Origin: Dehalococcoidia bacterium
GTDB taxonomy: Bacteria; Chloroflexota; Dehalococcoidia; Lucifugimonadales; UBA3495
Length of the DNA stretch: 64,000 nt
Assembly (NCBI GenBank): GCA_965217175.1
Contig: OZ244251.1
Span: forward strand, 3,346,686-3,410,685
Direction of reading: 5' to 3'
Part shown: one piece after another, positions 350 through 47,277 of the stretch
Layout of the letters: each line of letters begins with the position of its first letter
How positions within the stretch are numbered: the first letter of the stretch is position 1
Program-made: the position numbers and the translations under genes
The notes under the pieces: model-generated
What the model was told of the DNA's origin: nothing
Seen by the model: only the letters and a program-made list of their open reading frames with translations
Databases searched by the model: none

Positions 350-889
350 TCAATGGGTTCTGGCCGGATCGCGTTCCATTTCCAGCAATCTGGTCTTGAC
401 ATCGAGGCCACCGGCGCCGTAGCCGTGCAGGTTGCCACCACTGCCGATCACTCGGTGACAGGGAACAACCAGAACCAGGCGGTTTTTGGCCATGGCCTGC
501 CCAGCTGCCCGGGCTGCCCTGGGACTGCCGGCGGCATTGGCCAGCCATTTATACGAGCGCGTCTCTCCCGGTGGAATGGTTCGGCATGCTTCCCATGCTG
601 CCCCGTAAAACGCCGAAACTTCTTCCATATCCAGAGTAATTCGAGCCAGAGCGGCGTTGTCGCCACCGAAATAGTCGCCAAATGCGGTGAGTGATTCTGC
701 AAACATCGCCGCATTTTCTTCGGCGATTTGCAGCTTGGCTCCCAATCCGTCCAGCGCTTCCCCGGGATCAGGCTGGAGGCTAACGCGCTGCAAGCCCCGC
801 TCAGTGCCCAACAAAGCCAGCCAGCCCACCGGACACTTTTCCAGGTGGTAATAATAACGAGTCTGGGGAATGTCAATTTTGTTGCTCAT
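350..889 (-). CDS. ogt: methylated-DNA--protein-cysteine methyltransferase (Ogt/MGMT family)
   Basis: The C-terminal half has the active-site PCHRV motif (LVLVVPCHRVIGSGGNLHGYGAGG) and the typical upstream RTIPPGETRSY segment. I place the start at MSNKIDIP (ATG 889), downstream of the maximal ORF start at 913. Confidence 0.88.
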   Translation of the reverse strand: MSNKIDIPQTRYYYHLEKCPVGWLALLGTERGLQRVSLQPDPGEALDGLGAKLQIAEENAAMFAESLTAFGDYFGGDNAALARITLDMEEVSAFYGAAWEACRTIPPGETRSYKWLANAAGSPRAARAAGQAMAKNRLVLVVPCHRVIGSGGNLHGYGAGGLDVKTRLLEMERDPARTH

Positions 890-1033
890 TGGTAATGTAC
901 TCCAGTGTCCCACGCCAGCGCTCCGGCTGGTGTCCCGTTTATGCGATCCGGTATCTTACGCCCACCGGCCTCAATCCCGTCAACGGGTCGGTGTCACTGG
1001 CGCGCCGCGAACCAGGGCGACCCCCCAACAACT

Positions 1034-9147: not shown

Positions 9148-10140
9148 TTAGAGTATGTGGTAAAGCAAATGATGGTCGCGCAAAACATCCTGGGCGAAGT
9201 CATTTTCCACATCACGCCACACAGAGTGAATGTGATTGGCGCCGTTTTGGATGTTGTCGAATTCCACGATGAACTGCCCACCATGAATGCGGTAGTAGTG
9301 GTCACGGCTACGGTCCAACGCACCGGCCCATACCAATCGGTAGTCATCCAAGCCGGTGTCGCGAATCCTGGCCATTCGGTCGGCGGCCACCGGCTCCGGC
9401 ACACCACCGACATACTCGGAGATAAGGGTCATCAGCATCTCTTTCTGCGTACCGTTCAGGTCACGCGCCGCCAGACCTTCATCGTTGTGTATGGCCTGCT
9501 TACTGCTGTTGTAGCCCAAAATGTCCCACGGCGCATTGTCATGGATAATTGCCTTGCCCCGTTGGCCGGCGTCCAACGATGCCATCAATTCAATGGCCAG
9601 GTCTTCGCGCTGGCCCAGAATCCGCTGACCCAGTTTCGGCCCTTTCCGCACTTCGGCGGGGTTCGCGCCCAGGAAAAACGGCGTGACGGCCAGTATCTGG
9701 TCGCCCCAAACGCTGTAATGTACGGAAAGATGGTGGCCTTCGGCGCGCCAACCCCAGGGGTCTGAACCGGTGGGATCGCCGAAAACCGTCCAGTAGTAAA
9801 GCTCTGGGTCCCTGGGCCACGTAACATGGCCCGATTCCGCTTCCAGAGGACCAAGCACCTCTTCATGCTCGATGATCAGGTTGGCCTGCCGGTTAGTTTC
9901 ATCGGTCAGACCGGTGGCCAGTAAACTCAGTGCCAGGTTGCGTTGATTCCCATCCATGTCCCGGAGTGGCAATCCGTGTCGGTTCAATGGCGGGTAGTAC
10001 CAGAAAATCCTTTCGCCATCCATGTAGTGGAACGTTGCCTTGCTGCGTTGCTCGCTGTCGAGGCTATCCATCCAGGCGCTGGCCGCATCGGACATGCTGC
10101 TGGCGACCGAAGCGTGGGGGTGCGTGTGCTGAGCCGTCAT
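9148..10140 (-). CDS. DUF3500 domain-containing protein
   Basis: The sequence pattern ...FHYMDGERIFWYYPPLNRHGLPLRDM...WGWRAEGHHLSVHYSV...YRIHGGQFIVEFDN.QNGANHIHSVWRD matches my memory of the DUF3500 family. Confidence 0.75.
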   Translation of the reverse strand: MTAQHTHPHASVASSMSDAASAWMDSLDSEQRSKATFHYMDGERIFWYYPPLNRHGLPLRDMDGNQRNLALSLLATGLTDETNRQANLIIEHEEVLGPLEAESGHVTWPRDPELYYWTVFGDPTGSDPWGWRAEGHHLSVHYSVWGDQILAVTPFFLGANPAEVRKGPKLGQRILGQREDLAIELMASLDAGQRGKAIIHDNAPWDILGYNSSKQAIHNDEGLAARDLNGTQKEMLMTLISEYVGGVPEPVAADRMARIRDTGLDDYRLVWAGALDRSRDHYYRIHGGQFIVEFDNIQNGANHIHSVWRDVENDFAQDVLRDHHLLYHIL

Positions 10141-14467: not shown

Positions 14468-15127
14468 TTACCCTTCCACCAGCAACGTGTAATCGAATTC
14501 GTTCAGGTTTTCGATGATTGCGTGCGCCGCCGACAAGTCCAGGTGCCGCGTAGAATCGGTAAGGGTGCACACCGTGTACGCACCCGACGCGGAAGCCGCC
14601 GCCAACCCAATTGGGGAATCTTCGATCGCAATGCAGTCGCCGGCCGCCAGACCAATCAATCGCGCCGCCTTGATGTAAATGTCGGGAGCCGGTTTGCCAT
14701 TGTCTATGTCGTCGCCGCCCAGTGTAACGTCGAAGGCATCCGTCAGCCCGATCACGTCCAGCTTCAGATTAACCCACTCCCTGAGCGATGATGACGCAAC
14801 GGCGATGGGTATTCTTCGGCGCTGGGCTTCTGCGATCAGCTCGCGAACACCCGGCCGCGGGGTCAAATCGGTGCGTAACACTTCTTTCACCACCTCGTTG
14901 TAACCGGCCAGGAGCTCCCGCGGGGATTGAGGGATGCTCCGCAATTCTTTGACGCGTACCCACGTCTCCTCAACGGTGGAGCCCAACAGATACCGATTGT
15001 TCTCTTCTTCCGTTATGGGAGCCGCCCCGCAGCGCTCCACCATCATGTTCACTGCCTTGTGAAATAGCGGCTCGCTGTCGACCAGCACGCCGTCCATGTC
15101 GAACAAAATCCCCTTGTAACCCGGCAT
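14468..15127 (-). CDS. HAD-superfamily hydrolase (beta-phosphoglucomutase/phosphatase subfamily IA)
   Basis: Motif I: ILFDMDGVLVDSE. Motif II: AVASSS. Motifs III/IV: GKPAPDIY...IAIEDSPIG. Start at MPGYKG (ATG 15127); the maximal ORF extension looks non-coding. Confidence 0.88.
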   Translation of the reverse strand: MPGYKGILFDMDGVLVDSEPLFHKAVNMMVERCGAAPITEEENNRYLLGSTVEETWVRVKELRSIPQSPRELLAGYNEVVKEVLRTDLTPRPGVRELIAEAQRRRIPIAVASSSLREWVNLKLDVIGLTDAFDVTLGGDDIDNGKPAPDIYIKAARLIGLAAGDCIAIEDSPIGLAAASASGAYTVCTLTDSTRHLDLSAAHAIIENLNEFDYTLLVEG

Positions 15128-15183
15128 ATCAGGTTGCTCCTCGTGGCTGTCAGTTGGATAATTCCGTGGCTCTCTCTCGCCAA

Positions 15184-16338
15184 TTATACTGGTGACGTCG
15201 ATGCGTCCGAACCGGTCGAACTGCTCAACAAGAAACAGGAAGACGCCTTGAAGATCGCCCACAGCGCCATTCCTGCCTGTATGTTCATCGCTTCCAGTGA
15301 AGCGCCGGTAATGTGGCAACGCAGCTGGATTCCTTCGCACTCCAGCGTTACCTGATACCCGGGCGGGCGCATCTGCACATCGGTTACGACTCCGGACCAG
15401 GTGTTGCGTGCCGATGATTGGGGCAACGGCCCGGACGCCAGGATGATGTCCGATGCCCGAATTCCAACCGTTACTGCATCGCCGACCGCCAACCCATCTG
15501 CCAACGGTGTTTCCAGAGATCCGCCGCCTGCGGCGCAAACCATCGTTCCGTCCTGCGGCAAACGCTCCACAACCTCCATTTCCAAAAGATTTTCCACCCC
15601 CACCAAACGGGCGACCCGCCCCTGTCCCGGCTGTTCCAACATCGAAAGCGGTTGGCCCACAGCGACCGTTTTCCCGTCGTCGATGATCTGGACGGTATCC
15701 CCAAGGCCCAGCGCTTCTTCCCGGCTGTGTGTAACCAGGATGGCAGGAACGCTCAACCTGCGGATGGTGTTTCGTAACTCGGCGCCTAACTCGCGGCGCA
15801 GCTCCATGTCCAGAGACGCGAACGGCTCGTCCAGCAGCAGTAACGCCGGCTCCGGAGCCAGGGCCCGAGCCAACGCCGTTCGTTGCTGCTGGCCGCCGGA
15901 CAATTGCCAGGCGCGTCGTTCCGCCAGGCCATCCAGATGTAGCGCATCAATCAACGCGCCCACCCGATGACGCGCGGCGGAGCTTTTCCGGTCTTTCAGC
16001 CCGTAGCCGATATTTTGGCTGACCGTGAGGTGGGGAAATACATGGTTTTCCTGCGTAACGTAGCCCAACGACCGGCGGTGCGGAGGCACCCAGATCGACT
16101 GCCCTCCAGGTCCGCTCCCGTCGCTGTAAACAGTGTGGCCGGCAATCGTGATCCACCCTGCTTCCGGGCGCACCAGCCCGGCCATGGTGCGGAGCGCGGT
16201 GGACTTACCGGCTCCTGATGGCCCAAAAAGCACCAGAATGCGTCCCGAATCAACCTCCAGAGCGAGTTGCAGGCTAAAATCTCCGATCTTGACCTCGAAC
16301 TGCCCGGACGCAGCGGCATTCTCCATGGACACCGCCAT
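15184..16338 (-). CDS. modC: molybdate ABC transporter ATP-binding protein with C-terminal TOBE/Mop domain
   Basis: Walker A GPSGAGKST, signature LSGGQQQRTALARAL, Walker B LLLDEPFASLD and a C-terminal TOBE-like domain. The start codon overlaps the modB stop (TGATG at 16336-16340). Confidence 0.88.
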   Translation of the reverse strand: MAVSMENAAASGQFEVKIGDFSLQLALEVDSGRILVLFGPSGAGKSTALRTMAGLVRPEAGWITIAGHTVYSDGSGPGGQSIWVPPHRRSLGYVTQENHVFPHLTVSQNIGYGLKDRKSSAARHRVGALIDALHLDGLAERRAWQLSGGQQQRTALARALAPEPALLLLDEPFASLDMELRRELGAELRNTIRRLSVPAILVTHSREEALGLGDTVQIIDDGKTVAVGQPLSMLEQPGQGRVARLVGVENLLEMEVVERLPQDGTMVCAAGGGSLETPLADGLAVGDAVTVGIRASDIILASGPLPQSSARNTWSGVVTDVQMRPPGYQVTLECEGIQLRCHITGASLEAMNIQAGMALWAIFKASSCFLLSSSTGSDASTSPV

Positions 16339-17168
16339 CACCTGACCCCGTTGCTGCGGCGCAACAATAACGCGAGCAGCGCCAATGCCAGCACAGACAT
16401 CGCCAATAACAACACCGCCAGCGCCAGGGCAGCTCCAAGGCTGGATTCCATCGCCGTCATTATCGCCAGTGGCATGGTTTGGGTGCGCCCGGTCAGGTTG
16501 CCGGCGAACATGATGGTCGCCCCGAATTCGGACATCGCCCGCGCCCAGGCCAACGCCAACCCGGTGACCAGCGACGGCCATGCCATGGGCACGGTCAGCC
16601 TCCAGAACGTAGACCATGGGCTCACGCCCAGCGTTTGCGAAACGTCTTCGAAGGTTACGTCAACTCCCGAAAACCCTATTCGCGCCGCCCTCACGTAGAA
16701 GGGCGCCGCCACAAAAACCTGCGCAAAGATCACCGCCCCGGTGGTGAACGGCAGCGTGATTCCCACCGCGGATAACCCCGGGCCCAGGATCCCGTTACGC
16801 CCAAACGCCATCAACATGGCTACCCCGGCAACCACGGGCGGCAACACGATAGGCAACTCTACGAAAGAATCGATCACCCGCAACAATGGGGAATTTCGCC
16901 GGGCCAGCAACAACGCGAACGGTGTGCCAACAACAACGACCACCGCCATACTGATTGTGCTGGTGATCAGCGACAGTTGCAACGCCTGGACAACCAGCGA
17001 ACCACCCAGCCCGGCCAGGAATCCGTCCTGCTGGAAAGCGCGGATCAACAATGCCAGAATGGGCAACCCGATGAACAGGACGTATACGGCCGTTGCGGCA
17101 ACACCGGCGGGCGCCAACACGCCCAGGGTTGTAGCCTGTCGCCGGCCCGAAGACCATCGTCCCATCAT
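16338..17168 (-). CDS. modB: molybdate ABC transporter permease
   Basis: Six-TM permease with an EAA-like loop (AWARAMSEFGATIMFAGNL), located between modA and modC. Confidence 0.88.
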   Translation of the reverse strand: MMGRWSSGRRQATTLGVLAPAGVAATAVYVLFIGLPILALLIRAFQQDGFLAGLGGSLVVQALQLSLITSTISMAVVVVVGTPFALLLARRNSPLLRVIDSFVELPIVLPPVVAGVAMLMAFGRNGILGPGLSAVGITLPFTTGAVIFAQVFVAAPFYVRAARIGFSGVDVTFEDVSQTLGVSPWSTFWRLTVPMAWPSLVTGLALAWARAMSEFGATIMFAGNLTGRTQTMPLAIMTAMESSLGAALALAVLLLAMSVLALALLALLLRRSNGVR

Positions 17169-31224: not shown

Positions 31225-31688
31225 GGTGCACCTCACGGCTGCAGATTTGGAGCCCCAGTGTTTCGAACGATGATACCAGCCATTTTGCACATTGGATGAC
31301 GCTATCGTCATAGCGTGTTGCGGGAAGTTGATCCAATCGGAGCCCTCAAAACCGGGGATACGCAGCCAGTCCGCGAAGTGAGCGCTTCGACGGCCAAAGG
31401 CGCATTTTGGTTAATGACAAACGCCGTCTAAAAACGCCAGGCGCGACCCGTTCCACGCGCCTTGCGTCCATATATCGGTCGACTCAGCGGCTATTTGGAA
31501 AAACCGGCGTGGAGGGAGCAGACCAGCCTTCTCGTTGGTTCGCCCGCGCCATCGGCAGTTTGCGAGTGTGAGATTTAGCCACCACGGGACCCGAACGGTG
31601 TTAGACTGGCGAGATGCAGTTCCCGTCCGCTCCCCGGCTAAACTGGGCCGGCGGCTTGTATGCTAACCAGACACCCAGGGAGGAAATC

Positions 31689-32246
31689 ATGGCCAGAACC
31701 CCCAACGTAACCCGACAGTCCGTCCCGGAACATGAACGCGGGGCATTCGACACCTTTGTCGCCGATCGCGGTGAAGTGCCCACCACGGGTCCGGGTTCTG
31801 TAATGCTGAACGCTCCCGAAGTGGCGCAGCGTGCTCTCGGCCTCGCACTTTATTTGCGTACCGACACGTCGCTGGAACCGCGCATTAGAGAGTTGGCTAT
31901 GTTGCTGACGGCCCGCGAAAATGACTGTCAGTTCATCTGGAACGCCCATGCGCCGCCGGCTCGCCGTGCTGGCTTGCGCGACGAAATCGTCGATGCCCTC
32001 CGCGAACGGCGGGAGTTGCCCAATCCGTCCGCAGACGAAATCGCCGTGGTGAACTACGGGCGGGAATTCTTCCGGACCAGAAAGGTAAGCCAAACCGCCT
32101 TCGACGCCGCGGTCGCCCATTTTGGTATCCCGGGAGTAACCGAATTAACCACCCTCATGGGCTGCTACACAATGCTCGCATTCAACGTCAACGCCTTTGG
32201 TGTCGAGCTTCCGGATGAACTCGTCGAGGTCCCATTGCCCATCTAA
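31689..32246 (+). CDS. carboxymuconolactone decarboxylase (AhpD-like) family protein
   Basis: RELAMLLTARENDCQFIWNAHAPPARRAG has the CMD-family core: Cys ... His present, second Cys replaced. GGGAGGA RBS before ATG 31689. Confidence 0.75.
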   Translation: MARTPNVTRQSVPEHERGAFDTFVADRGEVPTTGPGSVMLNAPEVAQRALGLALYLRTDTSLEPRIRELAMLLTARENDCQFIWNAHAPPARRAGLRDEIVDALRERRELPNPSADEIAVVNYGREFFRTRKVSQTAFDAAVAHFGIPGVTELTTLMGCYTMLAFNVNAFGVELPDELVEVPLPI

Positions 32247-36040: not shown

Positions 36041-36205
36041 TTAGGCGGTGACGACCTGTGCCCGTTGTGATTTCCTGGAAGCATGATGCCCTGAAATCCA
36101 TTGCCCGTTCGTGGACACTGCCCGGCACCCCTTGATATGATTGGACATCCCGTCATCTGCTCGCATCTTCCACATTCATCTGAGTGAAGAATTACTTTCC
36201 GCGCC

Positions 36206-36233
36206 GAATAATTCCATGCAGAATAATTCCATG
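36206..36233 (+). repeat. 13-nt perfect tandem direct repeat (15-nt period) spanning the start codon region
   Basis: GAATAATTCCATG at 36206-36218 and again at 36221-36233. This creates two in-frame ATGs (36216 and 36231). Confidence 0.8.
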
Positions 36234-36953
36234 ACCCGAAATCTGCCACTCATCCCCGTCGTCCTCTTGGCAATCACGTTGGTCGCAATAATTACGGGTT
36301 GTTCTACGCTCAGAGAACCACCGGCCACTGACGCCAATCAGTCCTTGCCCACCTCGCTCGCAGCCATTGAGGAGTTGGTTGAAACCGTTACAACCGAACC
36401 AGAACCGGTCGGGCCGAAGGTAACAGTGGACGCATCCGCGCTCGATGCGCCTGCCAACACTCCACTACCAACACACACTCCAAGGCCAACGTACACGCCA
36501 CGGCCCAAACCCGCTTCCCCAGGAGAAGGCGAACGCCGTCCCGGCCCGCGATTCGAGGCCGCTCTACTCGATGGCAGTTTGTTTGAATTCGCGGAGACCT
36601 TGGGGACTCCAACGTTGTTAGTTTTCTGGGCTCCCTGGTGACCTTATTGCCAGCGGGAGTTACCCGCTGTACAAGCCCTCTACGCCGAAGAACTCGAAGC
36701 TGCCAGCATCAACGTAGTGGGCGTGTCTCAATTCAACACCACCGAAGCGGCAACCAACGAATTCGTCGATCGGACCGGTTTGTCCTTCCCGAATCTCTTT
36801 GACGAGTCGGCACAACTGGCCGATGCGTATGGAGTTGGTGGCGTGCCCTCTTACGTATTTTTGGACAAAGAAGGACTGGTCGCTTACACCAGTTCCGGCG
36901 CCCGCGGAACCGACCTGATTCGCGCTCTCCTGACCGAACTCAACCGGGAATGA
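36231..36953 (+). CDS. TlpA/ResA-family thiol:disulfide oxidoreductase lipoprotein with an in-frame TGA (36639-36641) at the first Cys of the CxxC motif: candidate selenoprotein (U-P-Y-C), or alternatively a nonsense pseudogene
   Basis: Signal peptide with lipobox ITGC and a Pro/Thr-rich tether. Then ...TLLVFWAPW-TGA-PYCQRELPAVQALY...VGVSQ...FPNLFDE...AYGVGGVPSYVFLDKEG, collinear with ResA/TlpA. The two ORF-track pieces (36141-36641 and 36717-36953) share one frame with no other stop between them. Confidence 0.6.
36647..36674 (+). promoter_or_regulatory. SECIS-like stem-loop immediately 3' of the in-frame UGA
   Basis: UUGC-CAGCGGG-AGUUA-CCCGCUG-UA-CAA. A perfect 7-bp upper stem (36651-36657 / 36663-36669) closes a 5-nt loop containing GU. 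A 3-bp lower extension is possible. The stem starts 9 nt after the UGA. Confidence 0.45.
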
Positions 36954-37399: not shown

Positions 37400-38152
37400 G
37401 TGTCGATGCGGCTCTATAACGATTTGGCTCATCTTTGGCCGATCGTAAGTCCTCCCGAGGAATACGACGTAGAGGCCGCTCTGTGGCTGGACATCATCCG
37501 CCAGCATCATTTCGAACCGGGTGGTCGACCTGGGCGCAAACCCAGGCTGCTCGAATTAGGTTGCGGCGGCGGACACCTGTTGTCCCATCTGACTCAGCAC
37601 GTCGATACCGAAGCAGTTGACATTGCTCCAAAAATGCTGGAGACGTCCCGGCGACTCAACCCACAAACGCGGCACCACCTCGGCGACATGCGAACCGTCA
37701 GGCTCGACAAGTCCTTCGACATCGTTGCCATCCACGACGCAGTGAACTACATGCTCACCGAGGATGACCTCACGGCCGCGATCACGACGGCTGCTCTGCA
37801 CCTGGTTCCCGGCGGCCTGTTGATAATGGCGCCGGACTGCCTCCGGGAGACCTTTCGCGGCCCCCGCGTAATTGACTGGACACGGGGGAACAGCAGCCAA
37901 GACGTCACGTTCATTGAATACATGGCAGACCCCGACCCCAACGACACCGTGATCGAATCGGTGTTCATATTCATTATCGACCGCGACGGGAAGATCACGG
38001 TGGAGCAGGACCGTCATATCAGCGGGTTGTTCTACAAACAAACCTGGCTCGACCTGCTGGACGAGTCCGGGTTTGACGCCGAGTACCGGGAGACCGAAGC
38101 CTACGAGGGCGGGATCGGCGGCCACCTGTTCGTGGGCATCCTCCGCCCCTGA
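37400..38152 (+). CDS. class I SAM-dependent methyltransferase
   Basis: LYNDLAHLWPIVSPPEEYDVEAA..., SAM motif I LLELGCGGGHL, and motif post-I/II ...FDIVAIHDAVNYM. The start is GTG 37400 or, more likely, ATG 37406. Confidence 0.85.
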   Translation: MSMRLYNDLAHLWPIVSPPEEYDVEAALWLDIIRQHHFEPGGRPGRKPRLLELGCGGGHLLSHLTQHVDTEAVDIAPKMLETSRRLNPQTRHHLGDMRTVRLDKSFDIVAIHDAVNYMLTEDDLTAAITTAALHLVPGGLLIMAPDCLRETFRGPRVIDWTRGNSSQDVTFIEYMADPDPNDTVIESVFIFIIDRDGKITVEQDRHISGLFYKQTWLDLLDESGFDAEYRETEAYEGGIGGHLFVGILRP

Positions 38153-38180
38153 ACCCCTGCCCCAGACTCAGCGTAAAATA

Positions 38181-39431
38181 TTATTCTTCGTCCAGGCCGG
38201 GGACGGGGAAGCGGTTGCCCAGGTGCCTGACCTCTTCCCCAATTGCAGACAGGGCGGCCTCGTCGCCTATGTTCGCCAGCGTACGCACGATCAACCTGGC
38301 AACCTGCCGGGTGTCATCTTCGCCCATGCCCCGGCTGGTGATGGCAGGGGTACCCAGGCGCAAGCCGGACGCAGTTCGTGGAGGCAACTGGTCGTATGGT
38401 ATCGCGTTCTTGTTGGCCACGATGTTTACCGATTCCAGGGCCCGTTCCGCCTGTCTGCCGGTAATGTCCAGCGGCGTGAGATCCACCAGCATCAGGTGAT
38501 TATCGGTCCCGCCGGCAACCAGCCGTACGCCAGACTCAGACAACTCCTGCGCCAATGCCTGGGCATTGGCCACCACCTGGTGGGCGTAACGTGAGAAATC
38601 GGGCTGGAGGGCCTCGCCGAAGCAAACCGCTTTCGCGGCAATAACGTGCATGAACGGCCCGCCCTGCATATACGGGAAAACTGCGAAATCTATTTTTCGG
38701 GCCAGGTCGGCATCGGCGAGAATCATTCCGCCGCGGGGGCCCCGCAGCGTTTTCTGCGTCGTGGAGGTAACGATCTGCGCGTGCGGGAATGGCGACGGAT
38801 GCGCCCCACCGGCAATCAGCCCCGAGATATGGGCCATGTCGACCATCAACTGGGCGCCCACCGAATCGGCGATTGCTCTGAACCTTGGGAAATCCAGGAT
38901 ACGCGAGTAGCTGCTGCAACCCGCAACGATCAGTTTGGGATTGTGCTCCCGCGCCAGTTGTTCAACCTGGTCGTAGTCGATGGTCTCCGTGTCCCGATCC
39001 ACGCCGTACGGCACGAAGTTGTACAGGTTACCGGAAAAGTTCACTCCAGCACCGTGGGTCAGGTGTCCCCCCATGTCCAACTGCATACCGAGAACGGTGT
39101 CGCCCGTCTCCAATACCGCGAAATACGCCGCCATGTTGGCCTGGGCGCCGCTGTGGGCCTGCACGTTGGCGTGTTGGGCCCCAAACAGTTCCTTGACCCG
39201 ATCAATAGCCAGCGTTTCAACCACATCCACGTTTTCGCAACCACCGTAGTATCGACGGCCCGGGTATCCCTCGGCGTATTTGTTGTTCATCAACTGGGCC
39301 TGGGCTTCGAGCACTGCCTTGCTGGCATAATTCTCCGAGGCGATGAGCACGATGGAATCCCGCTGTCGCCGGTTTTCGTTGGCAATCGCCTGGGCAACGG
39401 CAGGATCGATGCGTTCAAGAACTGTGGTCAT
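38181..39431 (-). CDS. glyA: serine hydroxymethyltransferase
   Basis: [41 protein letters not shown]..., and the PLP-lysine region [15 protein letters not shown] (family consensus [10 protein letters not shown]). Start at [10 protein letters not shown] (ATG 39431) with GAGGAG RBS. Confidence 0.95.
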
Positions 39432-39776
39432 GGTCAATCGTCTCCTCGGGGATATCAATCATCAGGGTGCGCCAGGTGGCGAAACTGTTTTTTCATCATA
39501 ACAAATCGAAAGCGGTGGCGGTGGTGCTACGCTCCCGGCCCGGTTTAGACACTGGTGTGGCGAGTTGGCCGGAGCCCACAGACACGAGATGACTTCCGAC
39601 GCGGCAGCCTTCGAGCGTGGCGCATCTATTCGACGGGACTCATGGATATCACTGCCAGAATTTGTGGTTCAGAGACAGTCAGGACGTCGCTGCGACTGCG
39701 GCGAACGACGGAAATATCAGCAGTGGAGGACACTCGATCCATCGATACACGGGATCTTCCGCGCCAGGATCGGCCG

Positions 39777-40238
39777 CTACGCTTCCCGCTCTATTGCTGT
39801 TCTCACCGATGCCAATATGCGACCGTAGGCGTTGCAGCGGCACAGGTTGCCCGACAGCGCTTCTAGGACTTCATCATCGGTTGGCGTGGGGTTGGTGTTT
39901 AGCAACGCCCTGGTGGCCATCACGAATCCCGGCGTGCAAAAACCACATTGACCCCCGTCTTCGTCGAGGTACGACTGCTGCAGCTCGGACAATATTCCGC
40001 CGGAAGCCAGACCCTCTATGGTCGCAACATTGGTACCGTCGACGCGAGAGGCCAGAACCTGGCAGGCGTTTACAGGTTTGCCATCCAGCAACACGGTGCA
40101 CGACCCGCACTCGCCCCGGTCGCAACCTCGCTTGGCGCCTGTCAATCCGAGCGAATCCCGCAGCACGTCGAGCAACGACCAATACTGGTGCAGCTGAATC
40201 GCCACCGAGTTTCCGTTGACCGTGATATTGATTTCCAT
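39777..40238 (-). CDS. (2Fe-2S)-binding small subunit of an XDH/CoxS-family molybdoenzyme
   Basis: MEINITVNG...GAKRGCDRGECGSCTVLLDGKPVNAC...GGQCGFCTPGFVMA...SGNLCRCNAY: both [2Fe-2S] Cys clusters are present. Start at ATG 40238; the rest of the 384-aa ORF is a non-coding-like extension. Confidence 0.9.
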   Translation of the reverse strand: MEINITVNGNSVAIQLHQYWSLLDVLRDSLGLTGAKRGCDRGECGSCTVLLDGKPVNACQVLASRVDGTNVATIEGLASGGILSELQQSYLDEDGGQCGFCTPGFVMATRALLNTNPTPTDDEVLEALSGNLCRCNAYGRILASVRTAIEREA

Positions 40239-40419
40239 CAGATTACCGTGGTCTGGGCTTGAATCTTGAGCAACCATAAGCTCCATCATCCTACGCCCGC
40301 GGTCGCCCCTCGGCAAGTGCATGGCGCTACCGTCGTTGACGTCTGACCGGGCCATTGATACCATCAGGCGCAACCCGCCGAAACCCAACGACCCGTCCAA
40401 CACCGTGGGGCGACCTGAT

Positions 40420-42708
40420 ATGACAACCACACCGCCACCGCCACTCACCACCGTGGGCCACAGCGTGCCACGGCGAGAGTTGGCAGACAAACTCACCGGC
40501 GCTGCCCAGTATTCGGCGGACATATCATTGCCAGGGATGCTGCACGGGGTAATTGTCCGCAGCCCGCATCCCCATGCCGACGTAATCTCGGTCGATGTTA
40601 GTGGCGCCCTGGCCCTGGAAGGTGTCCGTGCTGCTGTTACGCCAGACGATGCTCCGGTCGCCCGTTTGGCCCCCGATTTATTGGTGCTGGACACGCGCGT
40701 CAGGTTCGTTGGCGACGAAGTAGCCGCGGTGGCCGCCATTGATCTGGACACTGCTCGTCGCGCTGCTGCAACGGTAAAGGTCGAATATCGGCCCTTGCCT
40801 TTTGTTACGGACCCGGTTGCTGCCCTGGAACCCGGCGCACCGGCCATCCACCCCAACGGCAATCTGGCCATCCCTGAACCGTTGGCCCTCCAACGAGGCG
40901 ACATCGATGCCGGATTTGCAGCCGCCGACATAATTCTCGAAGAGACCTATACTCTGCCGACGCATTCGGCCACACCCCTCGAACCTCGGGCTGCTCTGGC
41001 TGCCTGGGAAAATGGTCACCTGACGGTATGGAAGTCCACTCGCGGAGTCCACGTAGACCGGGCGGCGCTGGCCCATGTCCTGGGAGTCCCCGCCGAGCAG
41101 GTGCGCGTAATCGGCCCCACCATGGGCGGCGGATACGGCAACAAGGACGAGTCGCGTATGGCGGCGCTCGCTGCATTGTTGGCTCAACGCGCTGGCCAAC
41201 CCGTCCGCGTCGAGTACAGCCGCGAGGAAGAGTTCGTCGCGGGTCGGACTCGCCACGGAGGCCGGATCAACCTGAGGATCGGCGTGAAAAACAACGGCGA
41301 TATCACGGCCATCCACGGTGACGCCATCATGGATTCCGGTGCGTATCAATCCTCGGCCCCGGGCGTGGCTCGCCGTGCCGGCCAGGGGATACTTTACCTG
41401 TACCGCTGCCCCAACGTTCGGTTCGATGCCCGTCCAGCCACCACCAACAAACCCGTTTCAGGCAGCTATCGCGCTTTGGGAGCTCCCCAGGGACACTTCG
41501 CGCTCGAAACGCTGATCGACCGGGCCGCTGACGCCGTCGGCATGGATCCGCTGGCGTTTCGTCTTCGCAATCGTGTACCACTGGAAGGACAGGCTGGACC
41601 ACGCCTGTCGCCCGCCGACGAGATCGTGGACGGGCAACCTCTTGAAGGCGGCATTCCGTTCTCCAGCAACGGTTTGGAAGAATGTCTCCGCCGCGGTGCA
41701 GCCCAGTTCGGGTGGGGAGAACAGTTCGAACGAACCGATGCTTCCGACCCCTTTGTTCGTCGTGGTCGCGGCATGAGCATGATGATCTATCGCGGCGGGG
41801 TGGGCTCCGAATCGGCCGCCGGCCTGACCATTGGAACGGATGGCAAAGTACAACTGATCAGCGGATTGATCGACGTAGGCGAAGGGGCCGTTACGGTGCT
41901 GGCGCAGCTGGCAGCCGAAGCTCTTTCCATTGGCTACGAAGATATTCAACCGCTGTTCGCCGACACGGCGGCAACGCCCAATGCCCCCATAACGGCCGGG
42001 TCCACGGCCACATTCTCCACCGGAACCGCGGTTCTGCAGGCTGCCGAGAAATTACGCGACCGCGTTTTTGCGGTGGCTGCGCGTCAATTGCAGGTACGAC
42101 GCGATGACCTGTCCATGGCCGACGGTGCGGTGTTCGTCGCCACCGAATCCGCGAACCGAGTGACGTTCGCCCAACTGGCTCAATCAGTGGCCCCCGAATC
42201 TTTGAGCGCCGAAGCGACGATCACGCCGGGCAGTCCGGATTACATCGTCAATTCGTTCGGGGCGCATTTCTGCGAGATCGAAGTCGACACTGCCACCGGC
42301 CGCGTGCGCGTATCACGGTATGTCGCGGCCCAGGATTCGGGTCGAATTATCAACCCTCGCACCGCATTGAATCAGGTTGAAGGAGCTATTTCCCAGATGC
42401 TCGGTTTCGCCCTCAGTGAAGAACTTGTTACCGATGTTCCCACCGGCGTTACGCTCAACGGCAGTTATCTGGAGCATAAAAGCCCAACGATTCGCGACTA
42501 CCCTGGCGTTGAAACAATCTATGCCAACGTGGTGGACCCCATCGGCCCAATGGGAGCAAAAGCGCTGGGAGAAGTGCCGTCGGTCGGCGTGGCTCCCGCA
42601 ATAGTAAACGCTTTGTACGATGCCATTGGCGTGCGCTTCGTTGAATTGCCGGTGACCCCCGACAAGATTTTGATTGCCCTGCAAAACCAGCAATCGGGCT
42701 CCGAGTAA
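40420..42708 (+). CDS. xanthine dehydrogenase-family molybdopterin-binding large subunit (aldehyde oxidase/CoxL-like; not a form-I/II CODH signature)
   Basis: GHSVPRRELADKLTGAAQYSADI..., ...GGGYGNK..., ...SGSYRALGAPQGHFALE..., ...GEGAVTVLAQ..., C-terminal ...GPMGAKALGEVP. The AYxCSFR/AYRGAGR CODH motifs are absent. Start taken at ATG 40420 (maximal ORF 40321). Confidence 0.9.
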   Translation: MTTTPPPPLTTVGHSVPRRELADKLTGAAQYSADISLPGMLHGVIVRSPHPHADVISVDVSGALALEGVRAAVTPDDAPVARLAPDLLVLDTRVRFVGDEVAAVAAIDLDTARRAAATVKVEYRPLPFVTDPVAALEPGAPAIHPNGNLAIPEPLALQRGDIDAGFAAADIILEETYTLPTHSATPLEPRAALAAWENGHLTVWKSTRGVHVDRAALAHVLGVPAEQVRVIGPTMGGGYGNKDESRMAALAALLAQRAGQPVRVEYSREEEFVAGRTRHGGRINLRIGVKNNGDITAIHGDAIMDSGAYQSSAPGVARRAGQGILYLYRCPNVRFDARPATTNKPVSGSYRALGAPQGHFALETLIDRAADAVGMDPLAFRLRNRVPLEGQAGPRLSPADEIVDGQPLEGGIPFSSNGLEECLRRGAAQFGWGEQFERTDASDPFVRRGRGMSMMIYRGGVGSESAAGLTIGTDGKVQLISGLIDVGEGAVTVLAQLAAEALSIGYEDIQPLFADTAATPNAPITAGSTATFSTGTAVLQAAEKLRDRVFAVAARQLQVRRDDLSMADGAVFVATESANRVTFAQLAQSVAPESLSAEATITPGSPDYIVNSFGAHFCEIEVDTATGRVRVSRYVAAQDSGRIINPRTALNQVEGAISQMLGFALSEELVTDVPTGVTLNGSYLEHKSPTIRDYPGVETIYANVVDPIGPMGAKALGEVPSVGVAPAIVNALYDAIGVRFVELPVTPDKILIALQNQQSGSE

Positions 42709-42714
42709 ATCGCT

Positions 42715-43707
42715 ATGCCGTTCCGTCTGAGCCAACCGGCAACACTGAATGAGGCCTGCGCCATCCTGGCCGCCGAACCCAACGGCGCCGCCATGATTGC
42801 AGGCGGCACCGATCTGTTGTCTGAAATTCGAAATGGCACCACGAACCCAACCACGCTGGTGGCGCTGGATAACGTGAACGACTCCAACTTGCGCGAAATC
42901 GCCGCAACTGCCAGTGGGGAGCTGCGAATAGGCGCCCTGGTCATCATCGCGGACATCGCTTCCCACGCTGAAATCCGTAACAACCATACGGCGCTCGCCG
43001 AAGCCGCGACTGGTCTCGCCACTCCACAGGTCCGCAACCTGGGGACATTGGGTGGAAACCTCACCCAGCGTCCACGCTGCTGGTACTATCGCCATCCCCT
43101 GACGGTGTGTTTGAAGCGTGGGGGCGACCACTGTTTTGCAGTCCAGGGCATGGGCAAGTATCTCTGCGTCACCGGAGGCGATCGGTGTTTCATCGTGCAC
43201 CCGTCCGATACCGCAGTGGCGCTGACAGCGCTGGGAGCCTCGGTCAGCATAACCGGCCTCCAGGGGGAATGGAATTTGCCCATCGACCAATTCTTCATCG
43301 GCCCCGACGTAGATCTGATGAGGGAGAACATCCTGGCGCCAGGAGAGATACTTACGGGCATCACAGTGCCACCGCCATCCCCAACGCAGCGCAGCATTTA
43401 CCTGAAAGCAGGGGAACGGGAATCTGGAGATTTCGCCCTGGTAAGTGTGGCAGCAGTTATTGATGTGGTGGATGGCACAATCAGTCGGGCATCGATAGTC
43501 CTGGGGGGAGTGGCGCCCACCCCATATCGCGCCGCTGCCACCGAGGAATACTTGCGATCCCAACCAACTACCTCGGTATCAATGGCGGAAGCGGGATCGC
43601 TGGCGATCGCAGATCGCAGGCCGCTGCCCGACAACGCCTACAAAATTCCCATGGCTGCCAACCTGGTAAACCGGGCCATAACCAGACTTCTGCAACGCGA
43701 CGGATAG
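42715..43707 (+). CDS. FAD-binding (CoxM/XdhB-like) medium subunit of the molybdoenzyme
   Basis: MIAGGTDLLSEIRNG..., GTLGGNL..., C-terminal CO-dehydrogenase flavoprotein-like domain. 6-nt gap after the large subunit. Confidence 0.88.
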   Translation: MPFRLSQPATLNEACAILAAEPNGAAMIAGGTDLLSEIRNGTTNPTTLVALDNVNDSNLREIAATASGELRIGALVIIADIASHAEIRNNHTALAEAATGLATPQVRNLGTLGGNLTQRPRCWYYRHPLTVCLKRGGDHCFAVQGMGKYLCVTGGDRCFIVHPSDTAVALTALGASVSITGLQGEWNLPIDQFFIGPDVDLMRENILAPGEILTGITVPPPSPTQRSIYLKAGERESGDFALVSVAAVIDVVDGTISRASIVLGGVAPTPYRAAATEEYLRSQPTTSVSMAEAGSLAIADRRPLPDNAYKIPMAANLVNRAITRLLQRDG

Positions 43708-43769
43708 ATTCGCCGGGGCTACGATTTGCGTTACGCACGGGCGGATTCGTGCCACGACAGGCGTCCGTC

Positions 43770-43798
43770 TTGACATCCGAGTACCCCTGTTACAGAAT
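43770..43798 (+). promoter_or_regulatory. candidate sigma70-type promoter
   Basis: TTGACA (43770-43775), 17-nt spacer, CAGAAT (43793-43798), 33 nt upstream of ATG 43831. Pattern match only. Confidence 0.3.
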
Positions 43799-43830
43799 AG
43801 CGGCAACTCAAAATTGGCAGGAACGAGAGT

Positions 43831-44624
43831 ATGACAACAGTACAGAGCGGTTCCCGAACCTCCGTAAATGTTAATGGTACCGCCGTGGAGATGTTCTCCG
43901 GCGGCAGCGGCCCACCACTGGTCTTTTTCCACGGCGCCGGCGGATCGTCCGGATGGCAGGCCTACCACGAAGACCTGGCGGCCAACTACACGGTATACGT
44001 TCCCAGCCAACCCGGCTTCAATGGGACCGAAGGCCCCAGTTGGGCAAAGACCATTGGGGACGTGGCGTTTTTCAACCACATGTTCATTGACGCCCTGGGC
44101 TTGCAGGATATTGTTCTCATGGGCTCATCAATGGGTGGCTGGGTTTCAGCCGAGATGGCAGCCATGGATGACCACAACATTGACGCCCTGATCCTGGTGG
44201 ACGCCGCCGGCATCAAACCGATTCAAGGCGAGATCGCAGAGATATTTATGGTTTCCGCCGACACCAGGCTACAGCAGCGCTTCTATGATCCCAGCCAAGT
44301 GGAAAACTACGAAATCATCACCCGCGAGTTAACTCCCGAAGAACAGCTGGTAGTCCACTCCAACGCCATCACCGCCTCTCAACTCTGCTGGCGCCCATAC
44401 CTGAACAACCCGAGCCTTCCCCATACGCTGGCTCGCGTCGACACGCCAACACTCATCGTCTGGGGCCGGAAGATGCCATCATTCCCGTTGAATGTGGGCA
44501 CATGTTCCAGCAGGCGATCAATGGCAGTCAGCTTTGCATCATCGACAATTGTGGCCATTCGCCGGCCATTGAAAAGCGCAGCGAATTTGTTTCTGCAGTC
44601 AACAGCTTCCTGAACAGCCTTTAG
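43831..44624 (+). pseudogene. alpha/beta-fold hydrolase (MhpC/BphD-like) disrupted by a 1-nt frameshift near 44467-44470
   Basis: Frame 1 gives ...LVFFHGAGGS..., nucleophile elbow LMGSSMGGW, ...TPTLIVWGR, then junk to the stop at 44613. Shifting back 1 nt so that a new codon starts at 44469 (a base seems missing from the G run in CCGGAAG) gives EDAIIPVECGHMFQQAINGSQLCIIDNCGHSPAIEKRSEFVSAVNSFLNSL*, ending at 44624. That segment restores the catalytic Asp and His regions. Confidence 0.75.
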
Positions 44625-44720
44625 CCGGCAGGAGCCCAACCGTTCCCCAATTACCGGAACCAACCCCGCTGCCACACTCGACCCATTCTGCCGCGCAACA
44701 CCGAGAAGGAGCAAACCAAC

Positions 44721-45872
44721 ATGGCTCACCAGCTTGAAGTGTTCTGGTTCTCAGAACAACCTTACGGCCACGTCACGGAAGACGATCTGGCGCCCTTTGA
44801 ATCGGGAAGAATGCACTTCCCCAATACCTTTTTCGATCCCGAAAAGGCGCACGTTCTGTACTCCAACTACCACGACCAGTATCAACTGGCCGACGAGGTG
44901 GGCTTCGACGGCATCATGTCCAACGAGCACCACAGTTCGTACTGGTGCATGAAGCCGTCGGTCAACGTTGACGCCGCCGTTATTACCCAGCGTACCAAAA
45001 GAGCAAAAATTGCGATGCTGGGCAACGTAATCGCAGTCAATGACCCCGTCAAGATGGCCGAAGAGATCGCCATGCTGGACTGCATCAGCGGCGGCCGTAT
45101 CATCTCTGGATTCGTTCGGGGCACCGCCGTCGAGACGTTGCATGCCGGATATTCGCCCACGGAAAACCGCCCGCGATTCGAAGAGGCCCACGACCTTATC
45201 GTGAAGTGCTGGACGCAACCCGGCCCGTTCCGCTGGGACGGCGAATATTGGCCGCACCGCATGGTCAACCCCTGGGTGGTGCCAATCCAGAAGCCGCACC
45301 CTCCGGTCTGGTTCCCCGGCACCGGCTCCCCTGAGTCCGTAATCTGGGCCGCCAAGCACCGGTATCCCTACATGAACCTGGGTTCGCTGCTTGATCTTAC
45401 GAAGCAGTTGAAGGGTATTTACCACGAAACCGCCGCCGAGGAAGGTTACGAAGCGGGGCCCGAGCACTTCGGTTACCTGATCCGCTGCCTGGTTGCCGAC
45501 ACAGATGAAAAGGCCCAGGAGATTGGCCGAACCTTCCTGTGGACGGAGAACCACCGCAACCGTGGGCCGATGGAATTCAACGACCCGCCCGGTTACCAGT
45601 CTCGCGAAGCCCTGCGCATCAAGATGTCGCGCCCCCTGATCGGTACCGGCACCATGGGCCAGCGCATGAGCTATGAGCAGCTGCAGGACGCGTACAATAT
45701 CATCGTGGGTAGCCCTGAAACCGTAATCGAGAAATTGCGGCACATCCGCGAGGACCTCGAACCCGGTTACATCCTCATCTACGGCAACGAAGGCCACATG
45801 CCCCACGAGGACGTGATGCGTTCTGTCGAGTTGCTGGGTACCAGGGTCATCCCCGCTTTGAAAGAGGGCTAG
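44721..45872 (+). CDS. LLM-class flavin-dependent oxidoreductase
   Basis: LEVFWFSEQPY...VGFDGIMSNEHHSSYWCMKPSVNVDAAVITQRTKRAKIAMLGNVIAVNDPVKMAEEIAMLDCISGGRIISGFVRG. AAGGAG RBS. Confidence 0.88.
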   Translation: MAHQLEVFWFSEQPYGHVTEDDLAPFESGRMHFPNTFFDPEKAHVLYSNYHDQYQLADEVGFDGIMSNEHHSSYWCMKPSVNVDAAVITQRTKRAKIAMLGNVIAVNDPVKMAEEIAMLDCISGGRIISGFVRGTAVETLHAGYSPTENRPRFEEAHDLIVKCWTQPGPFRWDGEYWPHRMVNPWVVPIQKPHPPVWFPGTGSPESVIWAAKHRYPYMNLGSLLDLTKQLKGIYHETAAEEGYEAGPEHFGYLIRCLVADTDEKAQEIGRTFLWTENHRNRGPMEFNDPPGYQSREALRIKMSRPLIGTGTMGQRMSYEQLQDAYNIIVGSPETVIEKLRHIREDLEPGYILIYGNEGHMPHEDVMRSVELLGTRVIPALKEG

Positions 45873-45906
45873 ACAGTAAATTCCAGCAACATATCCGCGT
45901 ACAAAA

Positions 45907-45936
45907 AGCGTCCCGGAGTGTATCCTCCGGGACGCT
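45907..45936. terminator. bidirectional hairpin terminator between convergent genes
   Basis: Perfect 12-bp stem AGCGTCCCGGAG-TGTATC-CTCCGGGACGCT, flanked by an A-run upstream (CAAAAA) and TATTTGTT downstream. Confidence 0.75.
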
Positions 45937-45969
45937 TATTTGTTAGGGAATGCCCTGAAAGCTGAAGCG

Positions 45970-47277
45970 CTAGCTGGCCCCGTTACGTTGTTGGGAGCCG
46001 TCAGGGTACAAATCGTCCCACAGCGCGTCCCGCCAATCCACGTCCACGGGCAAAACCGCCTGTGCTGGTCGCAGCATGTAGTAATTGCCGGCAACGCCCG
46101 GTGGCGTTTCCCCTTCGGCAACAGTGCGCGTAGCCTGCAGCAACATGCGGCGAGCATAAATGATGGCCATGTCGGTGCGGGACAGGTTCTCCCTGGTGCG
46201 GTCTACCACATAACCCATGCTTTCCTGCACAGCAACATCCTGAGCGTTAACACCGTCGATACCGCTGAAGGTTTCCGTTTTCTGAACATCGCGGTTAACC
46301 ATCCAGTTGTTGTCCCGGTTAACCCTGGTTCGGAAGTTGCCCAGCATGTGCTCGGGACCCCGGCCATAGCTGCGGTCCATCTCCACACGCTCATCATCCC
46401 CGATCGGATCATCGTACGACAGGTCCCAGTTCCACACCATGACCGAGTTGTCGTCCATGGGCACCCACATGTGTCCGGAAGCGAGGAAACCCGCTGGCCC
46501 GGGCCGGCCCCGGTATCCGCGTTGACTGGCGCGGATCTGGTGGAACGGCATGATGAAGTGATAAGCCCTGATGTGGTTGCCCTCGTCTCCCAGCGAGCGA
46601 ATTCCGGCGTAACGATAACCGTAGTCGGTTATATCCACCTCCAGTTCCGGCGGCCGACCCTGCACATGTGGCGAGTCAATCCGCAGGCCGGCGTGGGTGG
46701 TGTCAGCCCTGAGCGTCCGGTGCAGGATCGTGGCGTGGGCAGAGTCGATCCCCCCTTCCAGCGCCTGCAGCCAGTTGCACTCCTGCATGTTCTTGGTAAC
46801 GTGACGGTGCGTTGCCGGCACAGAAGCCCACTCAAAGTTTGGCGGAGCAGGAACATGCTCTTTCGGCCCCATGTAGGCCCAAATCACCCCGCCCATCTCA
46901 ATTGCGGGGTAAGACACCGTCGTCATTTTCGACGGAAAATCACTGTCCGCGGGCTCGTTCATCATGTCGACGCACTGGCCATTGACGTCAAATTTCCAGC
47001 CGTGATAAACGCAACGTAACCCGCATTCTTCGTTGCGGCCCAGCCACAACGAAACCAGGCGGTGCGGACATAATTCTTCCAGCAGGCCGATGCGACCCTC
47101 GGTGTCGCGAAACGCAACCAGCTCCTCACCCAGCAGTTTCAGGCGGACCGGTTCACCATCTGGTTCGGCCAGCTCCCACGAAAGCAGTGCCGGCATCCAA
47201 TAGCGGCGCATCAAGTCACCCATCGGTGTGCCGGGTCCGACCTGGGTGAGGGTAATGTTATCGGCCTGTGAAATCAT
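45970..47277 (-). CDS. Rieske [2Fe-2S] aromatic-ring-hydroxylating oxygenase, alpha subunit (phthalate-family type, no beta subunit)
   Basis: Rieske motif CPHRLVSLWLGRNEECGLRCVYHGWKF. Downstream mononuclear-iron region ...DSAHATILH... N-terminal MGDLMRRYWMPAL is typical of the phthalate/vanillate-type family. Confidence 0.88.
   Translation of the reverse strand: MISQADNITLTQVGPGTPMGDLMRRYWMPALLSWELAEPDGEPVRLKLLGEELVAFRDTEGRIGLLEELCPHRLVSLWLGRNEECGLRCVYHGWKFDVNGQCVDMMNEPADSDFPSKMTTVSYPAIEMGGVIWAYMGPKEHVPAPPNFEWASVPATHRHVTKNMQECNWLQALEGGIDSAHATILHRTLRADTTHAGLRIDSPHVQGRPPELEVDITDYGYRYAGIRSLGDEGNHIRAYHFIMPFHQIRASQRGYRGRPGPAGFLASGHMWVPMDDNSVMVWNWDLSYDDPIGDDERVEMDRSYGRGPEHMLGNFRTRVNRDNNWMVNRDVQKTETFSGIDGVNAQDVAVQESMGYVVDRTRENLSRTDMAIIYARRMLLQATRTVAEGETPPGVAGNYYMLRPAQAVLPVDVDWRDALWDDLYPDGSQQRNGAS

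Follow-up and report, generated by a model that had tools for sequence, protein, structure and literature searches.

Replacement of cysteine by selenocysteine (Sec, U) in thioredoxin-fold proteins with a UxxC motif is the commonest type of bacterial selenoprotein. One family of this type, the 'Thiol-disulfide isomerase-like protein' family (cd02966 TlpA-like / PF13905), was originally a prediction from the Sargasso Sea metagenome (PMC1088965); it is listed in reviews (PMC9312934; PMC13188914), together with the UxxC families 'Thiol:disulfide interchange protein' (PF13098) and 'Prx-like thiol:disulfide oxidoreductase' (PF00578), and with a 'UGC-containing TlpA family'. Here we describe a candidate gene of this kind in a stretch of 64,000 nucleotides from a Dehalococcoidia bacterium (the window: contig OZ244251.1, positions 3,346,686 to 3,410,685; coordinates below are those of the window, on its plus strand unless marked). 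From comparison with related genomes, we think it very probable that positions 36231–36953 encode one selenoprotein of 240 residues, in which an internal UGA is decoded as Sec and a hairpin downstream of it acts as the selenocysteine insertion sequence (SECIS).

Several other described systems bear on this locus. ResA of Bacillus and CcmG/DsbE are extracytoplasmic reductases of cytochrome c maturation. DsbF and DsbE/MPT53 of Mycobacterium tuberculosis, whose envelope is atypical for a bacterium, are TlpA-like secreted proteins or lipoproteins; they are reported to work as oxidases, not as reductases. With respect to decoding, the minimal SECIS of Escherichia coli fdhF has an 11-nt spacer and carries GU in its loop. 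A bacterial SECIS is recognized as a hairpin just after the UGA with a small, G-containing apical loop (PMC1088965). Within the Dehalococcoidia, two metagenome-assembled genomes (MAGs) with 49 and 46 selenoprotein genes are among the richest bacteria in BSepDB (2026).

Results

One reading frame with a single internal TGA

The first-pass annotation, made from the letters of the window, had proposed that the open reading frames (ORFs) 36141–36641 and 36717–36953 lie in one frame and are separated by a single TGA. Both ORFs are present and share a frame, and the translation of 36231–36953 reads ...TLLVFWAPW*PYCQRELPAVQALY...GVPSYVFLDKEG...NRE*, with one internal stop. The complete coding sequence would thus give 240 residues and a stop, with Sec at residue 137 (U137; TGA at 36639–36641) as the first residue of a U-P-Y-C redox motif, the resolving Cys (C140) at 36648–36650, in a column that is invariant, and the true termination codon, also TGA, at 36951–36953. 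The same architecture is found in the orthologues. In public annotation (Joint Genome Institute) the halves are named 'hypothetical protein' and 'peroxiredoxin'.

With the read-through product as query, 5.8 billion proteins were searched and no close relative of full length was found; the search gave four proteins of 139–161 aa, all of which end in ...F(W/F)APW; on their contigs a TGA stands at the identical column, the frame is open beyond it, and the C-terminal part is called as a separate 'AhpC-TSA/Redoxin' gene of 86–97 aa. Another 25 loci, many of them on closed chromosomes, came from a scan of species-representative genomes, and TGA is at the column in 25 of 25. The 29 other orthologous loci compared here (L002, L003, L004, L006, L007–L030 and L033) come from Dehalococcoidia/SAR202/Chloroflexota MAGs, several of which are sponge symbionts, and their products are 59–71% identical in amino acid sequence to the window protein. 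Whether orthologues carry TGA or Cys codons had been named as a check; TGA occupies the column in 29/29 of these loci (30/30 with the window), and TAA, TAG or a Cys codon is never found there. Beyond this clade the column encodes Cys: the next-closest homologues, from two SAR202 MAGs (L031 and L032) at 40% identity, have TGT, and 49 further homologues, mostly from Nitrospira and about 35% identical, have TGC or TGT. The motif reads WCPYC in P0004 and P0005.

The frame beyond the TGA is maintained as protein. Exactly 103 codons follow the TGA in 28/28 complete orthologues, without any indel, and the median pairwise ratio of non-synonymous to synonymous substitution (dN/dS) over this part is 0.135 at a median dS of 1.17, indistinguishable from the value of 0.146 for the 29 codons before the TGA. 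The first-pass annotation had seen no other lesion in the domain; the part after the TGA is under purifying selection. The terminal stop varies among species between TGA, TAA and TAG; the internal one is always TGA. Within the window TGA is an ordinary stop, since the 45 genes end with TAA in 16 cases, TAG in 15 and TGA in 14, and reassignment of the codon is therefore excluded. Taken together, the conserved TGA, the 103 constrained codons and the ordinary use of TGA as a stop rule out a pseudogene, an error of base calling and a change of code.

A covarying hairpin follows the TGA

The first-pass annotation had also pointed to a SECIS-like hairpin at 36651–36669. Its 7-bp stem pairs perfectly, CAGCGGG (36651–36657) with CCCGCUG (36663–36669), around the apical loop AGUUA (36658–36662), which has G at position 2, and the stem begins 9 nt past the TGA. 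The suggested extension by UUG/CAA forms in the minimum-energy fold of the window, but is a peculiarity of the window and does not appear in the alignment consensus. In a 42-nt segment the hairpin is the minimum free energy structure (-13.0 kcal/mol, z = -2.06), but 9 of 200 shuffles fold as well, and in a 71-nt segment z is only -0.49. The hairpin by itself is modest evidence, and it is significant through the comparative data.

For these we used an alignment of 29 sequences, comprising 26 distinct rows, on which RNAalifold predicts a 6-bp core corresponding to 36652–36657 paired with 36663–36668. The pair formed by alignment columns 14 and 30 is GC in 16 of the distinct rows, AU in 5, CG in 3, UA in 1 and GU in 1, and is unpaired in none; that formed by columns 15 and 29 is GC in 16, AU in 5, GU in 4 and AC in 1; the four inner pairs are invariant. 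The expectation that TGA carriers would keep the hairpin with covarying stems is thus borne out for two pairs, with a covariation score of 0.267 that was reached by 0/500 shuffles and compares with 0–0.165 in slid controls. The covariation ties the variable residue after the resolving Cys (Gln, Gly, Ala or Leu codons) to a codon five positions downstream, in which the changed bases are synonymous or exchange Ala and Val; this is a link that constraint on the protein would not predict.

Codon use points the same way. The core codons CGG-GAG-UUG-CCC are each represented by one codon in 27 species, the sole exception being UUA in the window, while outside the hairpin none of the 46 codons for invariant residues is monomorphic in the 27 species (mean 3.2 codons). 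Synonymous sites elsewhere are saturated, unlike the frozen core of the hairpin. The Cys homologues encode K-E-M-P at this place and form no comparable structure (-4.7 and -2.8 kcal/mol versus -13.0 kcal/mol).

The window sequence has some individual traits. It is the only one of the 29 in which the loop ends in A at 36662 (AGUUA, Leu UUA) rather than reading AGUUG, and it is among the few with a seventh C-G pair and the UUG/CAA extension. The hairpin core GGGAGTTGCCC has a second, identical copy at 32011–32021, which was rejected as a chance R-E-L-P in the gene for an unrelated 210-aa protein (31614–32246, +); the copy has no TGA within 20 nt upstream, its host gene has no internal stop, and by chance about 1.4 matches would be expected in the DNA that was searched.

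Selenocysteine machinery in the lineage

We looked for the Sec-decoding genes in the orthologous loci as well as in the window. ARAGORN found no tRNA-Sec in the window, the 30 orthologous loci or three SelD loci, and with E. coli SelA, SelB and SelD as tblastn queries against the window and every locus only SelD matched, in L001/L002. A weak SelB-like match in L019 was set aside as belonging, on the grounds of length and sequence, to a 675-aa GTPase of the EF-G type; L003 has a similarly placed 675-aa gene with EF-G Pfam domains. Neither selA nor selB was found beside SelD in the three genomes in which they were sought.

The SelD gene of L001/L002 lies 9.5 kb upstream of the orthologue; its product is 41% identical to E. 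coli SelD (8.7e-27) and at full length reaches 383 bits on the TIGR00476 model. SelD and the orthologue share chromosome-sized contigs in five genomes (3441435, 4368549, 4301394, 4431290 and 4008726 nucleotides), a pairing made by equal nucleotide counts. Among the best 120 SelD relatives listed, nearly all are called as proteins of 306 aa. This length is an artefact in 3/3 loci inspected, where the frame continues upstream as M...PIRLTELSHCAG-TGA-AAKLSLEDL; in one of them the gene spans L089:9870-10921 with its TGA at 9923-9925, and the TGA has the same position in L090 and L091. All three read SHCAG-UGA-AAK, which places the UGA at the catalytic Cys17 of E. coli SelD (SHGAGCGCK), and the UGA is followed by a hairpin of its own, with an 8-bp stem and a GGY loop (GGU or GGC). 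By this reading of the frame, SelD of the related Dehalococcoidia is itself a selenoprotein, and a Sec-containing SelD is functional only in a Sec-decoding cell. All Sec-decoding organisms without FdhA have a Sec-containing SelD (PMC1794560). One of the orthologues (L017) is on MPNC01000001.1, from SAR202 bin87, for which Table S4 of Slaby et al. (2017; PMC5649159) gives three COG1921 (SelA), one COG3276 (SelB) and one COG0709 (SelD).

Architecture and fold of the product

Residues 1–24 of the predicted product, MTRNLPLIPVVLLAITLVAIITG|C, fit a signal peptide with a lipobox (…AIITG|C24; 36231–36302), with the putative lipid-anchored Cys encoded at 36300–36302. The proposal of a lipoprotein is in keeping with this pattern, which in the window has the canonical form I-T-G-C; in nearly all orthologues a hydrophobic N-terminal stretch ends in [G/A]-C, again as a pattern only. 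A Pro/Thr/Ala-rich linker of about 80 residues follows (36303–36542) and is probably a flexible tether. It contains the motif T(H/Y)TPRP twice in the window protein, and a TYTPRP-type motif occurs once or twice in every orthologue checked. Low in complexity as it is, the tether keeps T-Y-T-P-R-P clade-wide (L002–L033), usually in two copies.

The remainder (36543–36950) is a ResA/TlpA/DsbE-like thioredoxin-fold domain by Pfam and PDB sequence matches. In the Pfam comparison, with Cys put in for the stop, the models above thresholds were AhpC-TSA (77.7 bits, cutoff 26; 9.4e-22), Redoxin (68.4 bits, 7.5e-19), Thioredoxin_2 (44.6 bits), Thioredoxin_8 (37.3 bits) and Thioredoxin. The best PDB sequence matches were ResA (4nmu, 7.1e-17), M. 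tuberculosis DsbF (3ios, 1.9e-16) and DsbE/MPT53 (1lu4, 1.6e-14), and in the alignments to ResA and DsbF their N-terminal CxxC cysteine stands opposite the TGA. As the first-pass annotation had it, the active site is of ResA/TlpA type: W-U-P-Y-C-Q-R-E-L-P fits the W-C-x-x-C-x-x-E-x-P pattern of ResA, TlpA and CcmG, with U as the first Cys. The Pro of a G-V-P-S loop (36846–36848), an invariant column, occupies the cis-proline position of the thioredoxin fold and aligns with the ...LPT and ...VPE loops of ResA-type structures. None of the specific NCBIfam models reached its trusted cutoff (ResA 74.6 versus 170, StoA 61.7 versus 210, DsbE 44.8 versus 123, TlpA 33.2 versus 230), and on these scores the protein is therefore classed as a member of the TlpA-like superfamily with no named orthologue or equivalog.

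Discussion

The window protein belongs by definition to the 'Thiol-disulfide isomerase-like' family, although it is set beside the representatives MGB1650493.1 and MAK15852.1 by description only. With that family it has in common a TlpA-like domain, a UxxC motif, widespread Cys homologues and a SECIS with a G-containing loop right after the UGA; it differs in that its clade is one of Dehalococcoidia/SAR202, in its lipobox and long TYTPRP tether, and in that Sec is invariant. It also resembles the selenoproteins of NF041054 (ResA-like WAxxUGC selenoprotein), which are ResA/TlpA-like with Sec after W-A-x-x, as here after W-A-P-W. Membership in NF041054 is ruled out, however: that model, of 354 positions, has U-G-C (a UxC motif), whereas the window protein has U-P-Y-C (UxxC) and scores 63.2 bits against a cutoff of 300.

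Among the Cys enzymes, ResA (4nmu, 1st9/1su9) and CcmG/DsbE share with the window protein the W-C-x-x-C-x-x-E-x-P motif, the cis-Pro loop and, as far as its lipobox pattern predicts, a membrane-tethered, extracytoplasmic topology. Unlike them, it has Sec in place of Cys and a lipobox with a tether instead of a transmembrane helix, and no resB, resC or ccdA lies near its gene. The active-site context of DsbF and DsbE/MPT53, WFWAPWCPTCQGEAP, is nearly identical to VFWAPWUPYCQRELP of the window protein, although these too are Cys enzymes. Because the closest relatives include both reductases (ResA) and reported oxidases (DsbF/DsbE), the direction of electron flow cannot be read from similarity.

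The hairpin agrees with the E. coli fdhF element and the bSECISearch consensus in that it is part of the coding sequence and directly follows the UGA on its 3' side, that the essential upper stem comes after a spacer of about 10–11 nt, and that the apical loop is small and contains G(U). In contrast to these, the hairpin of the window clade is shorter (6–7 bp), has no bulged U and carries the loop AGUUG. The SelD hairpin of the same lineage differs again, with its 8-bp stem and GGY loop placed 22 nt after the UGA.

These comparisons suggest how the gene might work. The hairpin, starting 9–10 nt past the UGA and consisting of a 6–7 bp stem and a 5-nt loop, AGUU[G/A], would be a bacterial SECIS, whose loop would recruit SelB-GTP-Sec-tRNA(Sec) to a ribosome arriving at the UGA, so that the codon is decoded as Sec. 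The product would then be exported by its N-terminal signal peptide and probably lipid-anchored through Cys24 at the outer face of the cytoplasmic membrane, where the Pro/Thr-rich tether would hold the ResA/TlpA-type thioredoxin domain outside the membrane. U137 would act as the nucleophile in place of Cys, attacking disulfides (or sulfenic acids) of a substrate to form a selenenylsulfide that C140 would resolve, and a membrane electron shuttle of the CcdA/DsbD type may re-reduce the enzyme. Candidate substrates and roles are apocytochrome c, CuA/Sco maturation and the repair of oxidised envelope proteins.

Other explanations of the interrupted frame were weighed against decoding of the UGA as Sec. 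The first-pass annotation had kept open a TGC-to-TGA nonsense mutation or a base-call error; the locus would then be a recent pseudogene or the product of a sequencing or assembly error, and the window viewed in isolation, with its single lesion and no Sec genes, is compatible with either. This alternative is effectively refuted, and we give it next to no weight, since the same TGA recurs in 29 other loci, which belong to different species and sequencing projects and were assembled independently, and the indel-free frame downstream of it is constrained. It is also very unlikely that the UGA simply terminates translation, yielding a lipoprotein fragment that ends in FWAPW and a re-initiated C-terminal 'peroxiredoxin', with the hairpin serving termination, re-initiation or mRNA stability. 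Gene callers do annotate such a pair, and a GTG is available at 36717, but the split would cut the thioredoxin fold inside CxxC and remove the nucleophile, and the 25 codons from the TGA to this first possible restart, those for the resolving Cys and R-E-L-P among them, show conservation at the protein level. Furthermore, the internal stop does not alternate with TAA and TAG as the terminal stop does, and the called C-terminal fragments start variously, giving 97, 86 or 104 aa.

A more subtle alternative accepts read-through and questions the residue inserted: tRNA(Sec) might deliver Cys under conditions of selenium scarcity, or the hairpin might stimulate near-cognate insertion of Trp or Cys, always or some of the time. 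The amino acid is not something that sequence data can display, and the homologues make it clear that the enzyme is viable with Cys. Nevertheless we consider this alternative unlikely, as the lineage keeps SelD, whose catalytic residue is itself encoded by UGA, bin87 is reported to have SelA and SelB, a hairpin with a small G-containing loop is the hallmark of a SelB-binding SECIS, and, were Cys intended, a change from TGA to TGY would be expected somewhere among 30 lineages. We therefore prefer to read the UGA as Sec, because it is conserved, the coding sequence downstream is constrained, the hairpin covaries, Cys homologues exist and a Sec-containing SelD is found in the lineage; the original proposal of a Sec-encoding UGA with a SECIS in a TlpA/ResA-like lipoprotein is supported.

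Several observations nonetheless weigh against this reading or parts of it. As had been noted at the outset, selA, selB, selD and tRNA-Sec are absent from the 64 kb of the window, as searched with ARAGORN, Rfam and tblastn, and the only tRNA there is a tRNA-Pro. We infer the Sec machinery of the window organism from relatives with only ~60% amino acid identity across syntenic genes (L001, L002, L007 and L008), and for SelA and SelB in carrier genomes the evidence is the published COG table. Rfam, applied with gathering thresholds to the whole window and at E ≤ 10 to 36500–36800, reported only the tRNA-Pro. The hairpin overlaps codons of the conserved R-E-L-P motif, so that its conservation is partly at the protein level. 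Within ±10 kb of the gene, in the window, L002, L003 and L004, there is no CcdA/DsbD, cytochrome-maturation or Sco gene, and the functional part of the scheme is generic.

UxxC TlpA-like selenoproteins and selenoprotein-rich Dehalococcoidia are already in the literature, and nothing is changed in principle. We regard the gene as encoding a genuine selenoprotein, possibly of a new subfamily of the known UxxC TlpA-like kind. The fuller proposal, that a lipid-anchored, tethered, ResA-like enzyme of Dehalococcoidia/SAR202 with obligatory Sec and a compact, frozen SECIS makes up a distinct and uncatalogued subfamily, is tentative and, in our view, rather doubtful. No Cys variant occurs among the 30 lineages, whose divergence is roughly at the family level. 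Were the proposal true, the 6-bp hairpin CGGG-AGUUG-CCCG would define what the SelB of Chloroflexota recognises.

In dozens of Dehalococcoidia/SAR202 genomes automatic annotation breaks this selenoprotein up into a pair of meaningless genes; once this is corrected, an exported redox enzyme re-enters the metabolic picture of a lineage that is abundant, marine and host-associated. The short, invariant and covarying hairpin is a usable signature for finding the gene, and a candidate minimal SECIS for the study of SelB recognition in Chloroflexota.

Other features of the region

At the start of the gene there is a tandem duplication, GAATAATTCCATG-CA-GAATAATTCCATG (36206–36233), read directly from the sequence, which supplies two in-frame ATGs, at 36216 and 36231; the ORF is open from 36141. 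Either ATG could be the start codon, and use of that at 36216 would add an optional MQNNS extension to the N-terminus. Upstream of the gene lies a promoter-like site (TGGACA, an 18-nt spacer and TG-TATGAT; 36112–36141) with 10/12 matches; this is weak evidence, with one such site found and 0.8 expected from shuffles.

A scan of the other TGA-bridged ORF pairs in the window, with Pfam applied to the ambiguous regions, gave no second selenoprotein candidate. A CGE*FC context at 692 was rejected because it is antisense to a real gene: the ORF 350–913 (-), with a P-C-H-R-V motif typical of O6-alkylguanine-DNA alkyltransferases, accounts for the spurious context. Elsewhere in the window, the ORFs 14468–15538 and 15184–16617 (-) overlap by ~350 nt in different frames, which could reflect a frameshift, a mis-chosen start or a spurious ORF. 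On a related chromosome, L090:527-4011 comprises ~3.4 kb without a called gene except a tRNA-Met.

The neighbours of the selenoprotein gene include genes for a GMC oxidoreductase, a methyltransferase, serine hydroxymethyltransferase, CoxSML-like proteins, a luciferase-like monooxygenase and a Rieske oxygenase, and give no clue to the substrate. Upstream, where the GMC oxidoreductase lies in the window, gene order is not conserved. Downstream it is kept between 37400–47277 of the window and 10858–20486 of L001/L002, and runs from an S-adenosylmethionine-dependent methyltransferase through serine hydroxymethyltransferase (-), a 2Fe-2S subunit (-), a molybdopterin hydroxylase large subunit and an FAD subunit to an alpha/beta hydrolase, the luciferase-like monooxygenase and the Rieske oxygenase (-).

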